Source of the DNA: an uncultured bacterium
Lineage (GTDB): Bacteria; Patescibacteriota; Gracilibacteria; Absconditabacterales; Absconditicoccaceae
Assembly: GCA_964293055.1 (NCBI GenBank)
Contig: CAXYYI010000001.1
Span: forward strand, 1 to 30,729
DNA length: 30,729 nt
Direction: 5' to 3'
The notes under the pieces are model-generated. The model worked only from the letters and a program-made list of their open reading frames with translations, did not search any database and was not told the origin of the DNA. Made by a program: the position numbers and the translations under genes. Shown piece after piece: positions 25,533-29,050 of the stretch; positions within the stretch are counted from its first letter, which is position 1; the number at the start of each line of letters is the position of its first letter.

Positions 25533-26573
25533 TTACTTCAATACAACAACCCAAAATAATCCAAATCCCACAACAAAATTTATATAAGGAAACACTTTAT
25601 AGAGTCAGAATATTTCTTTTCTCGTATATGACATAATAATCATAGTAAGATAGATAATACCTCATGCGATACTTGCTCGTCATAATAGTGGATAACTTAC
25701 TATTGCAGCTGTACTATAGAGTAATCAACAGTATATCAATGCATTTTGTTTCCCAAGAAAGACAGCTGTTGTACGTAGTCATGCTTGTTTATCTGGTTCT
25801 ATATCTGGAATCGCAGAGTAGCAGTGCATTGCCATACATCGAAAAAGAGAAGCAAAAAAGCTGTATGTGAGATCTAATAGATTGTAATCTGATCACTTGC
25901 TCAATATATATGACGAGAACAGTATAGTAAATGGTGTAGCAATATAGAGTATATTCATAACCCCATCAATAAAAGGTTTTGCTTTAGCTCTTAATGGTTT
26001 GCAACTATAAAGGTATGAAGTAAGAAGAAATGGTAGTAAAGGCATAGCGATAACTATAAATCTCTTTGTGAAGTTTGTATATGATCACTTAAAATATCAT
26101 ATTCATTCTCATATATATGTAAAAAACGATAATATATAGTTATTATGTTCTGTAATAATTCTATCTCATAGAATTAATATTCATATACTAATAACTAAAA
26201 ATCCAATACTTACATATCCTATATTCCACAATCGGATCTGCTTTTTCAAAGCTTTTTTATATGCGTTACCTTTTATATGGATGTTTGCTTCATACGCTCA
26301 TTTTTTATCATTGAGCATATCTGTATCTTCGTCTGCAATATCATTCCACCCATAAATTCGAAGATTGGCGGGAAGTGTAAAATAACCAAGTATTATAAAG
26401 AACACTCCCATTTCAACAATTGTAGAGATACTCCATCATCTATTATATATATTATGCAGGTACCCACTTCATGCAAAGTATAGTAACATTGGTCCCAAAA
26501 CATATATCCAAAATCTTGGACGAGAAATGCGCAAAAGTTCCTTTAATCATAAATGTGTATGACTTGAACTCAT
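25533..26573 (-). CDS. UbiA-family prenyltransferase, lycopene elongase LyeJ/CrtEb type, 346 aa
   Basis: ISRPRFWIYVLGP, PANL.IYGWNDIADEDTD..NDKK, YSCKPLRAKAKPFID, F(CGA=W)CMAMHCYSAIPDIEPDKQAGLRTTAVFLG. These match the motifs of haloarchaeal LyeJ and actinobacterial CrtEb. Confidence 0.85.
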
Positions 26574-26632
26574 AATACAGCTGACAAAATAATAAAAGAC
26601 AACAGACTATCTGAATTGGTTATTTTTTATAT

Positions 26633-27496
26633 TTATCTTATTTTTTTTCGTATCTCTTTGGTAAGTACTAGTGCTTTATCATGTCGTTGTGTTCTTGCTG
26701 ATGTAGCAAATACATTGTAATGATTATGTTCGATTTTGCGAAGAATTTGTTGATAGAGTTTTAGGCTGAGATATACAGCTTTTCTTGTGTCTTGTGGCAG
26801 AAATTGTATACCATGATATGCTTCATCATAGAGCGCATCACAATGGTGGATACAATATGCCATATATTTTTCTCGATTATCGTTTATTATTCATGTTGTA
26901 GAAAATTCCTTTATGTGGCGATATGAAAGACTAAATTTTTGTAGCCATTCTTCTGGCATATATAAACGACCGTATTCTATCCAATCTTCTTTAACATCGC
27001 GCAAAAAATTTGTAAGTTGCATAGCTTCACCAAGTTTTTTTGCATAGTGAAATGTTGTATGGTCATCTTCAGGTATGCTAAAAATATGACACATCATCTC
27101 TCATACTACCATCGCAGAACCATACATATATTCTTGCAGTTCTGTGTATGTTGCATAAGTTTTTTTAGAAGTATCTTGGAGCATAGCTTGCCAAAACGCT
27201 TGTGAGAGTTCTACAGGAATATGGTTCTCATGAAATAATGAGACTGCGTCTCATCGCACCGTATGGTGCGTATTATTTTGGTAATAAGCTGTTTGTCGTT
27301 CTTCTCGCATAGCAGAAAGTTGTGCAGATGCATCAGTATCAGAAATATTTGCATTGTCAACTACGAGATCAGGAATACGAACAAACTTATATAATTCCAT
27401 AACTTTTTTTTTCAGTGAGTTTGGGAAAAATAATGTTGCATAATAGTAACTTGTACCATACTTTTGCATATACCAACTTCCAGACTTCGTATGCAT
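26633..27496 (-). CDS. crtB: Phytoene synthase
   Basis: YGTSYYYATLFFP, YKFVRIPDLVVD, LGEAMQLTNFLRDVKEDW..GRLYMP, LYQQILRKIE..YNVF. Joins three track ORFs via TGA. Confidence 0.92.
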
Positions 27497-27541
27497 AAAA
27501 AACACTACTAGATAAAAATATTATATGGTGTATACTGAATT

Positions 27542-29050
27542 TTAATGATTCTTTTTTGTAATAACTCTTTCAGCAGTAAGCTCACCAGAAATAAGACACA
27601 TTTGTGTCCCTACACCAGGATTAGTGAAAGCACCTGTATAGTAGAGACCTTTGATTTTTTTACTATAATTATTTGGTCTAAAGATAGCTGTTTGTGATAG
27701 GGTATGTGCAAGTCATAAAGCCGTACCTTTGTATGCGTTATATCTTTCAGTAAAGTGTTTAATGTGAAAGAGTTTGCTGTATTCAATACGATTTTTGAAG
27801 TCAGGTATATGACATACATCAGCTATCATATCAAGTACTTTTTCGCTATATGCTTTTTCTTCAGCTTCCGTGAGAGTGAGTCATGGAGCGCAAGGCACAA
27901 GTACAAAAATGTTCTCTTTTCCCTCAGGAGCAACTGTGGTATCGGTTTCACTTGATTTACAGATATACATAGAAGGATCTGTTGGAAGAACTGGTTTGTC
28001 AAAAATCTCAGCAAAGTTTTTATGTCGATCTTGTGTAAAGATTAGGTTATGATGAGTGAGCATTGGGAGTTTCCCATCAACTCATAGGTAGAGCATATAT
28101 GCTGATGGTGCAAGTGTTTTCTTTTCCCAGTATTCTTCTGTATAGGTCTGTTGTTTTGTCTCAATAAGATTGAGCTCTGTATAGGCCATATCAGCGTTGG
28201 ACACAACTATATCTGCATTGATATGTTCTCATGAAGCGAGTATAACACCAGTTGTATATGTTTTAACTCTGCCAAATGATCCTTTTTCTTCACGTGTTGT
28301 AATTTTGGTAATAGGACTACTAGTATGGATTTTTACACCATTTTTGCGTGCAATTTTTTCTAGTGATCTAATGATCTCATAGAGTCATCATTGTGGATAT
28401 CGTACTCATTGTACAAAATCTACATGTGACATAATTGAGTAGATAGCGAGTGCATCATATGGTGATGTTCACAAAAAGAGAAGTGGATAACTCACAATTT
28501 TTTGCATCTCTTCTGTCTTGAAAAACTTTTTCACATATCTGTTCATTGTTTGTAGAACATTTAATTTCATACCTTTGATAGCTGTATCAATATCAAAGAA
28601 ATCAAAAATTGAATCATAATTTCTATAAACAAATTTACCTAATGCAATTGTGTATTGGTATGTAGCAGGACGTAGATATTCTCTAAAATGTGGTGTGACA
28701 CCTGGCTCTATTGCTTCTAAAGTCGCCAAATCTTTTTCTATATCAGCCATATCATCGACTATTTGATTTTGTGGTGTGAAAAAAATTCTATAACTTGGAG
28801 CAAGTTTGGTAAGGGTAAGGTGTTCATTAATATCCTCTCCGACATCTTTATAAAACTTCTCAAACACATCAGGCATAAGATACCAACTTGGTCCCATGTC
28901 AAATCTATACCCATTTTCTTCAAGCAAAGAGGCTCTTCATCATACATGATCATTTTTTTCGTATAGTGATACATCATATCATGCTTGTGCGAGGTGAATC
29001 GCGCTACTAAGACCTCATATACCTCCTCAAATAACTACTACTTTTTCCAT
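27542..29050 (-). CDS. crtI: Phytoene desaturase (CrtI family), 502 aa
   Basis: VVVIGGGIGGLSSA (two Gly = TGA), GYRFDMGPSWYLMPDVF, GV(CGA=W)YPQGG, GTALGLAHTLSQTAIFRP, GLYYTGAFTNPGVG..CLISG. Confidence 0.93.

Follow-up and report, generated by a model that had tools for sequence, protein, structure and literature searches.

The locus considered here, namely a three-gene operon of an uncultured SR1 bacterium of the order Absconditabacterales, has its closest described counterparts in carotenoid gene clusters of archaea and bacteria. It encodes a CrtI-family desaturase, a CrtB-like synthase and a UbiA-family prenyltransferase at positions 25533-29050 of the window, i.e., the entire stretch of 30,729 nucleotides that was analysed, which is itself the whole of contig C1 of a fragmented metagenome bin (~973 kb, 185 contigs, 74% complete). 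Together with genes located elsewhere in the genome, on other contigs, the operon, which is intact and native, quite probably represents the gene set for a predicted bacterioruberin-type pathway leading to acyclic C45/C50 carotenoids.

In haloarchaea, the corresponding cluster associates crtD or 'CrtID' with lyeJ and cruF, crtB lying nearby, e.g., on plasmids of Halarchaeum sp. CBA1220 (L107) and Halocatena salina (L109). For the prenyltransferase, Swiss-Prot has LyeJ entries of Halobacterium salinarum (Q9HPD9), Haloferax volcanii (D4GTV9) and Haloarcula japonica (M0L7V9). The SR1 genome resembles the haloarchaeal cluster in having the four enzyme families adjacent or in one genome, in the identity levels of its UbiA protein (24-27% to LyeJ, with both Asp-rich motifs), desaturase (44%) and CruF (~30%), and in the lack of a cyclase, acyclic end groups being predicted in both. 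Unlike in the haloarchaea, the genes reside in a bacterium whose recoded genome measures 1 Mb, the gene order is crtI-crtB-lyeJ, and cruF and a gene resembling those for geranylgeranyl diphosphate (GGPP) synthases lie on other contigs; moreover, the UbiA protein bears an insertion of ~48 residues, a single CrtI-family gene is present, no pathway to isopentenyl diphosphate (IPP) was found in the genome, and the scores fall below curated cut-offs.

Among bacteria, the production of bacterioruberin is established in Arthrobacter (A. agilis/A. bussei), where the genes Lye, CrtD and CruF are involved (PMC9122864, PMC8709818). This is likewise a bacterial bacterioruberin pathway relying on the same enzyme families, for which a control of membrane fluidity has been proposed, but Arthrobacter differs from SR1 in that CrtI and CrtD are separate genes, that IPP is synthesised by the organism itself and that the pigment is known from chemical measurement. 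CrtEb of Corynebacterium glutamicum and LbtBC of Dietzia sp. CQ4, which take part in the formation of decaprenoxanthin and C.p.450, belong to the same UbiA subfamily and elongate lycopene by five-carbon (C5) units, as predicted for the SR1 protein; they are nonetheless only 18-20% identical to it, work with C50 cyclases (CrtYe/Yf, LbtA) that are absent here and come without CruF. Closer in sequence is a cassette of the form CruF-UbiA-CrtI-CrtB, with or without a polyprenyl diphosphate synthase (PPS), found in Acidobacteriota (Pyrinomonadaceae and Chloracidobacterium-like metagenome-assembled genomes), Actinomycetota (Friedmanniella), Bacteroidota (Psychroserpens, Gillisia, Bizionia) and many Patescibacteria: the UbiA gene has the same neighbours and its product is 31-39% identical to the SR1 protein. 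In these phyla, unlike in SR1, the UbiA protein is ~275 residues long without the insertion and most loci keep four or five genes contiguous.

Within the ultra-small bacteria belonging to the Candidate Phyla Radiation (CPR), lyeJ, crtD and cruF were described in Patescibacteria of Lake Baikal, namely in bins of Baikalibacteria and in one genome of Saccharibacteria, and were proposed to help adapt the membrane (Environ Microbiome 2023; PMC9948471). The two cases are alike in that a bacterioruberin pathway is predicted in ultra-small CPR cells from sequence and that cruF can lie apart from lyeJ. They differ in that the Baikal study does not include Absconditabacterales/SR1, in that the SR1 genes are written in a code where TGA stands for Gly and CGA for Trp, and in that SR1 is found in sludge, wastewater and aquaculture rather than in a cold deep lake. 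The idea of such a pathway in the CPR, put forward in a preliminary description of the window, is thus not new. No open-access paper was found to deal with carotenoid genes of Absconditabacteria, SR1, Vampirococcus or Absconditicoccus. As the gene kit is common in relatives and the cassette is widespread, this is not a new kind of system; particular to the SR1 case are the use of CGA for Trp at invariant positions, a variable insertion in the elongase and the order-wide lack of a precursor pathway.

Intact genes under a reassigned code

Read with translation table 25, the operon consists of three intact and co-oriented open reading frames (ORFs) on the minus strand, in exact agreement with the boundaries initially reported, whereas under table 11 the same region is shattered and contains no long ORF. 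The intergenic gaps of 45 and 59 bp initially reported were found as well, the former (crtI-crtB) applying to the ATG start of crtB and shrinking to 36 bp with the GTG start, and the latter separating crtB from the UbiA gene. All three proteins score above the gathering scores of Pfam (Amino_oxidase/FAD, 2e-37; SQS_PSY, 2e-59; UbiA, 3.6e-11).

Absconditabacterales reportedly reassign TGA to Gly and CGA/CGG to Trp, according to a Codetta study. CrtI, CrtB, UbiA and CruF were each aligned with 46-75 standard-code homologues, and 22 of their 37 TGA sites fell in columns with a Gly majority and none in columns with a Trp majority. Among the 16 CGA sites, three coincide with near-invariant Trp, i.e., CrtI 342 (98%), CrtB 70 (95%) and UbiA 245 (100%); the others mostly fall in columns of Phe, Tyr, Leu or Met, and a single one of the 16 lies in an Arg-majority column. 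In the GxGxxG motif of CrtI for the binding of flavin adenine dinucleotide (VVVIGGGIGG, residues 4-13), the glycines, e.g., G8 and G12, are encoded by TGA. The genome contains tRNA genes with anticodons UCG (C137:1275-1349), UCA (C26:5065-5138) and GCG (C159:452-526), which we take to be the decoders expected for CGA as Trp, TGA as Gly and CGY still as Arg; a tRNA(CCA) was not found among the tRNA genes of the incomplete (74%) bin, and CGG is nearly unused genome-wide (21 codons in 576 long ORFs). The recoding of TGA to Gly and CGA to Trp in these genes is real, and the CGA codons at three near-invariant Trp positions provide a small independent check on the latter reassignment.

With respect to composition, the carotenoid genes are native to the genome. 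TGA occurs at 25.9, 10.5 and 46.2 per 1000 codons in crtI, crtB and the UbiA gene, respectively (genome median 24.2), CGA at 4.0, 20.9 and 11.6 (median 3.3), and the G+C content of the three genes is 31-35% (median 33.8%). The genes had been depicted as saturated with TGA and CGA and hence long-resident: relative to the genome medians saturation is an overstatement, and the native codon use supports a long residence. A recent horizontal import was rejected on account of the typical codon use and of the single clade formed by the UbiA copies of the order (see below).

The same observations bear on the possibility of a relic, whether decaying or silent, or of a chimeric assembly that brought in another organism's genes, in either case without function in this cell. 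In its favour can be counted the fragmentation and 74% completeness of the bin, the fact that only 33 of the order's 141 genomes retain the UbiA gene, and the fact that the locus is known from DNA plus a weak hint from RNA. On the other hand, as it takes the rare code of the host to obtain intact ORFs, with TGA at conserved Gly and CGA at invariant Trp in the catalytic region, foreign DNA is ruled out and selection can be argued; neither G+C content nor codon use departs from what is typical of the genome, the operon is intact in several independent sequencing runs and the Absconditabacterales UbiA copies, from 19 genera, form one clade. A relic or chimera is hence highly improbable in our view. 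As for the RNA, contigs 90-95% alike from one wastewater RNA library include parts of crtI and of the UbiA gene and run across the crtB-crtI junction, at best a faint indication that a related strain transcribes the locus, DNA carry-over being a possible source of such contigs. Near-identical DNA occurs in metagenomes from aquaculture, sludge, activated sludge, wastewater and freshwater.

A separate observation on codon use concerns two glycolytic genes of the window, enolase (22530-23855, plus strand) and pyruvate kinase (23992-25467, plus strand), which contain neither TGA nor CGA when the genome averages 24.7 TGA per 1000 codons; 54 of the 576 long ORFs are devoid of TGA. This looks like an avoidance of reassigned codons in highly expressed genes.

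The UbiA protein and its gene context

The strongest argument for the predicted carotenoid role of the UbiA protein is its conserved gene context. The cross-phylum comparison covered the 80 loci nearest to the UbiA protein, which come from Acidobacteriota, Actinomycetota, Bacteroidota, Abditibacteriota, Armatimonadota and many classes of Patescibacteria, with neither haloarchaea nor Corynebacterium among them: CrtI adjoins the UbiA gene in ~70 of these, and most also have CruF and CrtB, often along with a polyprenyl synthase. Across the 141 Absconditabacterales genomes surveyed, the UbiA gene is present in 33 (19 of 43 genera; 19 of the 79 high-quality genomes), the SQS_PSY family in 37 at E <=0.001 (35 above cut-off), including all 33 that bear the UbiA gene and usually adjacent to it, and CruF in 19, often adjacent to UbiA as well. 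Cultured members of the Flavobacteriaceae also carry a gene for a LyeJ-like UbiA protein beside crtI, namely Bizionia sediminis (L090), Psychroserpens burtonensis DSM 12212 (L094) and Gillisia limnaea DSM 15749 (L099).

The protein itself points in the same direction. The signature motifs quoted in the preliminary description are present, i.e., SRPRFW (residues 17-22), YGWNDIAD (74-81) and WCMAMHCYSAIPDIEPD (245-261), the Trp of the last one being encoded by CGA, and the Asp-rich motifs N77-D78-xx-D81-xxx-D85 and D257-xxx-D261 are invariant in an alignment of 18 sequences (A1). It obtains 43 bits with Pfam UbiA (cut-off 34), and its best NCBIfam model is PRK12875 (NF009516) with 171.6 bits, the insertion dividing the match into two parts. 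For comparison, two complete Absconditabacterales genomes (G074 and G075) reach 209 and 208 bits, both above the cut-off even with TGA unread, and the prenyltransferase of the crtB-crtI-prenyltransferase-cruF cluster on the Halarchaeum plasmid 397 bits.

The AlphaFold model is all-helical, with a predicted local distance difference test (pLDDT) of 84 and a predicted template modelling score (pTM) of 0.81. In a Foldseek comparison with the models of Swiss-Prot proteins, ranks 1-6 are all occupied by lycopene elongase/hydratases (E 5e-11 to 1e-7, 18-26% identity), i.e., LyeJ of H. volcanii, H. salinarum and H. japonica (24-26% identity, E ~5e-11), LbtBC of Dietzia and two CrtEb of C. glutamicum; the next matches, namely MenA, CtaB and UbiA, have E values of 1e-5 or worse at 12-18% identity.

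A quick maximum-likelihood tree of 95 UbiA sequences, with support from the Shimodaira-Hasegawa-like approximate likelihood ratio test (SH-aLRT) and long outgroup branches, separates the LyeJ-like group from two other UbiA prenyltransferases (SH-aLRT 97). A single clade (84) unites the twelve copies of the Absconditabacterales, with a Gracilibacteria copy as its sister (93), and this clade nests among those of other Patescibacteria, Bacteroidota and Abditibacteriota, the haloarchaeal copies constituting a clade of their own; haloarchaeal plasmid copies in canonical cluster context stand in this tree for characterised LyeJ, CrtEb and LbtBC. The placement among elongases expected in the preliminary description is as such borne out by the fold ranks and by the split from other UbiA proteins, the tree having held no characterised sequence. 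Overall, fold model and sequence support the view that the protein belongs with the lycopene elongases of LyeJ/CrtEb type, its function being predicted.

The insertion, at residues ~127-174 between two transmembrane helices, lines up with gaps (>80%) in an alignment of 75 standard-code homologues, which are ~275 residues long and do without it, and pLDDT falls there to 50-57. It also differs between strains, since a 7.9-kb contig of run X2 has other letters across 26021-26212.

These results can be set against a pathway confined to C40 carotenoids, in which lycopene would be made, CruF would act as a 1,2-hydratase as in Deinococcus and cyanobacteria, and the UbiA protein would prenylate another acceptor, e.g., a lipid head group or a quinone-like compound, or be inactive on lycopene. 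Such a pathway would accommodate the insertion and the below-cut-off score of the SR1 protein, as well as the coverage of C40 hydratases by PF04240, seen in control genomes, and the existence of LyeJ-family paralogues outside any carotenoid context that exceed the PRK12875 cut-off, i.e., that membership in this family alone does not prove the substrate. Against it, the UbiA gene is tied to crtI, crtB and cruF in different phyla, only lycopene elongases figure among the characterised proteins closest to its product, CruF fits the bacterioruberin-type models far better than the gamma-carotene one (93 vs. 36 bits), and there is neither a context of quinone biosynthesis nor a second UbiA gene found in the genome, so that we regard a C40-only pathway as unlikely. 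The paralogues in question are found on Haloferax larsenii plasmid pHl5678-1 (L108, 2864-8505) and on a plasmid of Halomontanus rarus (L110), without carotenoid genes; the former has a geranylgeranyl reductase and two further UbiA prenyltransferases beside it.

The predicted route from precursors to pigment

The desaturase aligns over model positions 1-478 of 478 with NCBIfam NF058655, named 'CrtID, bifunctional phytoene desaturase/3,4-desaturase', at 593 bits; the scores are 484 bits for crtI_fam (cut-off 238), 234 for CrtD and 46 for HpnE. By its sequence, it is of the 'CrtID' type typical of bacterioruberin clusters, which adjoins lyeJ in haloarchaea: the Halarchaeum desaturase beside lyeJ scores 754 bits with the same model and is the one 44% identical to the SR1 protein. 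That 3,4-desaturation would be carried out by the same single desaturase, of which one CrtI-family copy was found by tblastn in the 74%-complete bin, is what we infer from the family name only.

The crtB-like protein gives 202 bits with SQS_PSY (PF00494; cut-off 26) and, with the NCBIfam equivalogs, 135 for HpnC, 132 for HpnD and 119 for the CrtB models, all below cut-offs. Taken at face value, the small advantage of HpnC and HpnD would suit a C30 route, where the enzyme condenses farnesyl diphosphate (FPP) in the manner of CrtM or squalene synthase towards C35/C40 products or a squalene-derived lipid; furthermore, the single polyprenyl synthase of the genome must also feed FPP to UppS, and its product length is not fixed. 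All these synthase scores are nonetheless so far below the cut-offs as not to discriminate, the desaturase is far closer to CrtID than to any model of CrtN or HpnE type, the synthase is 31-35% identical to those of haloarchaeal bacterioruberin clusters, and in the polyprenyl synthase Leu and Ala, instead of an aromatic residue, occupy positions -5/-4 before the first DDxxD motif, which, in view of how chain length is determined, fits products of C20 or longer. There is in our opinion very little chance that a C30 route applies, and the genomic context argues for phytoene, made from GGPP, rather than a C30 compound as the likely product of the synthase.

The window itself contains no crtE, idi, cyclase or cruF, as initially reported, and the genome was searched for the missing genes. 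A crtE-like gene (contig C27) and cruF (contig C35) were recovered, contrary to genes of the methylerythritol phosphate (MEP) and mevalonate pathways (see below); tblastn recovers CrtI, CrtB, UbiA, CruF and the polyprenyl synthase in a single copy each, and five families (GGPP-synthase-like, CrtB, desaturase, LyeJ and CruF) are hence distributed over three contigs, i.e., C1, C27 and C35. The best models for CruF are two bisanhydrobacterioruberin hydratases (TIGR03460/NF041333; 93 bits). Homologues of the polyprenyl synthase lie inside the carotenoid cassette in many loci and adjoin the UbiA gene in the closest genus, and in a complete relative (G001), cruF-crtB-idi and the pair of polyprenyl synthase and UbiA genes are found within 6 kb. 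The presence of cruF and of a polyprenyl synthase in the genome implies that the predicted product is of the hydrated bacterioruberin type and that GGPP is presumably self-made.

Two side observations relate to these genes. Compared with 47 standard-code homologues, CruF (L003) bears a lysine-rich insertion of ~32 residues (133-164) and a C-terminal extension (229-276). As for the polyprenyl synthase, C112:5-91 (minus strand) encodes its first 29 residues with 86% identity to C27:12-98, which is probably a contig overlap due to strain variation, and the true upstream neighbour of the synthase gene may be on C112.

Lycopene cyclase families are nearly absent from the order (PF18916 and PF05834 above cut-off in one genome each out of 141), and acyclic products are supported by this absence; cyclic C50 products were rejected for the same reason. 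A link with rhodopsin was rejected for this lineage as well: type-1 rhodopsin occurs in only two of the 141 genomes and in none of the same genus, from which it follows that the pigment of this lineage is not a retinal precursor. Both rhodopsin-bearing genomes, i.e., G114 (C23:1959-2960 and 3331-4035, beside a CrtY-type lycopene cyclase) and G108 (C124:3307-4005), also have carotenoid genes, and a self-made retinal route is possible in the former SR1 genome.

The most economical reading would be a full bacterioruberin-type route with one desaturase. In this route, (i) the polyprenyl synthase would build GGPP from IPP and dimethylallyl diphosphate (DMAPP), (ii) CrtB would join two GGPP into phytoene, (iii) the single desaturase would convert phytoene into lycopene and, if bifunctional as its NCBIfam name says, introduce the 3,4 double bonds, (iv) the LyeJ-like UbiA protein would transfer C5 units from DMAPP onto C-2, at one end and then at the other, with hydration, yielding C45 and then C50 compounds, and (v) CruF would hydrate the added side chains to give an acyclic, hydroxylated and membrane-spanning C50 pigment. 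An acyclic C45/C50 carotenoid made via crtB, the desaturase and an elongase of LyeJ/CrtEb type had been put forward from the window, and fold ranks, synteny, codon use, clade structure and cyclase absence all agree with this prediction.

Several points weigh against this route. The proteins fall short of the cut-offs of the corresponding NCBIfam models, i.e., 171.6 vs. 205 bits for the whole UbiA protein with PRK12875, 593 vs. 640 for the desaturase with CrtID, 119 vs. 500 for the synthase with the CrtB models, where HpnC and HpnD are marginally higher, and 93 bits vs. cut-offs of 155 and 300 for CruF; the NCBIfam match of the polyprenyl synthase does not fix the chain length of its product. 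A predicted elongase with some 48 additional residues is a further difficulty, as is the behaviour of the haloarchaeal plasmid paralogues outside carotenoid context, which pass PRK12875 (223 bits) and branch beside LyeJ copies in true context. In a literature search for 'CrtID', the source of the bifunctional name was not found. More generally, the function of all CPR copies is a prediction from gene sequence. Finally, in a bin 74% complete with cruF and the polyprenyl synthase on other contigs, absences from the genome itself are weak, and the claim of a missing precursor pathway leans on near-complete relatives.

Precursor supply, neighbouring genes and significance

For this reason, i.e., the 74% completeness of the bin, the precursor genes were surveyed over the whole order. 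In the genome itself, IspH, GHMP kinases and 3-hydroxy-3-methylglutaryl-coenzyme A (HMG-CoA) reductase were not found, nor was idi. Among the 141 Absconditabacterales genomes, HMG-CoA reductase was found in none and DXS as four weak matches only; GHMP kinases occur in 27, mostly as weak matches, and IspH in 29, of which 22 belong to one genus, including two of the 33 UbiA-bearing genomes. The presence of UppS in the genome indicates that the cells need IPP in any case, and the lack of an entry enzyme of the MEP or mevalonate pathway across the order suggests that IPP and DMAPP are probably taken from the host or prey. The supply of both GGPP and DMAPP by a host had initially been envisaged: the absence of entry enzymes from the survey is consistent with host-derived C5 units, but GGPP from the host does not fit with the cell's own polyprenyl synthase on C27.

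IspH (LytB), the last step of the MEP pathway, is found as an orphan in some members of the order (e.g., G092:C3:19852-20703 and G016:C77:466-1311), where it might salvage 4-hydroxy-3-methylbut-2-enyl diphosphate (HMBPP) from the host, DXS and HMG-CoA reductase being absent from the order. In the complete genome G001, a type-1 IPP isomerase directly follows cruF-crtB (L112, G001:C1:944424-947897, ORF 1450-1995, minus strand).

A more speculative scenario, unlikely in our eyes, is that, with the entry enzymes missing from the whole order, an epibiotic SR1 cell that drains its prey would build its membrane-spanning C50 pigment wholly from C5 units of the host, or else would remodel carotenoids of its prey with the insertion-bearing LyeJ-like enzyme; pigmentation would then record the feeding relationship.

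The features of the operon, its surroundings and the additional pathway genes are listed in Table 1.

Table 1. Features of the carotenoid operon and its neighbours in the window (contig C1) and of the pathway genes on other contigs.
Feature	Position	Strand	Remarks
LyeJ-type UbiA prenyltransferase, predicted lycopene elongase/hydratase	25533..26573	-	346 aa
Lineage-specific insertion in the UbiA protein, residues ~127-174	26052..26195	-	alignment gaps, pLDDT drop
Phytoene/squalene synthase family (crtB-like)	26633..27505	-	290 aa from GTG 27505; 287 aa from ATG 27496
CrtI-family carotenoid desaturase, 'CrtID' type	27542..29050	-	502 aa
14-bp palindrome with flanking A and T runs	25487..25518	.	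terminator-like site
Small MscS-like membrane protein	29086..29859	-	upstream of crtI (gap 35 bp); MS_channel_2nd 2.2e-9
Flavodoxin-like-fold NAD(P)H (quinone) oxidoreductase-type protein	29912..30580	-	upstream of the MscS-like gene (gap 52 bp); Flavodoxin_2 7.5e-33
Short-chain polyprenyl diphosphate synthase	C27:12-1022		137 bits PF00348
CruF-type hydratase	C35:1337-2167		78.8 bits PF04240 vs. cut-off 25

At its downstream end, the operon is separated from the convergent pyruvate kinase gene by the palindrome, which is likely a bidirectional terminator marking the end of the transcription unit; five terminator-like sites were found in all, vs. 1.9 expected from shuffles. A promoter scan yielded 32 sites vs. 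33 expected, i.e., no signal above chance. Upstream, the MscS-like and flavodoxin-fold genes are possibly co-transcribed with crtI, the flavodoxin-fold gene being possibly the first of the unit; nothing tying either of them to carotenoids turned up.

If the predicted pathway holds true, about a quarter of the sampled Absconditabacterales species would be coloured, and likewise many other ultra-small bacteria. Cells unable to make phospholipids or isoprenoid precursors would then contain a rigid, bilayer-spanning antioxidant lipid, which may serve to stiffen the membrane or to protect it from oxidation. The pigment would also offer an optical handle, by resonance Raman or absorbance, to find and sort these cells from sludge or lake samples, and would raise the question of which C5 precursors pass from host to symbiont.

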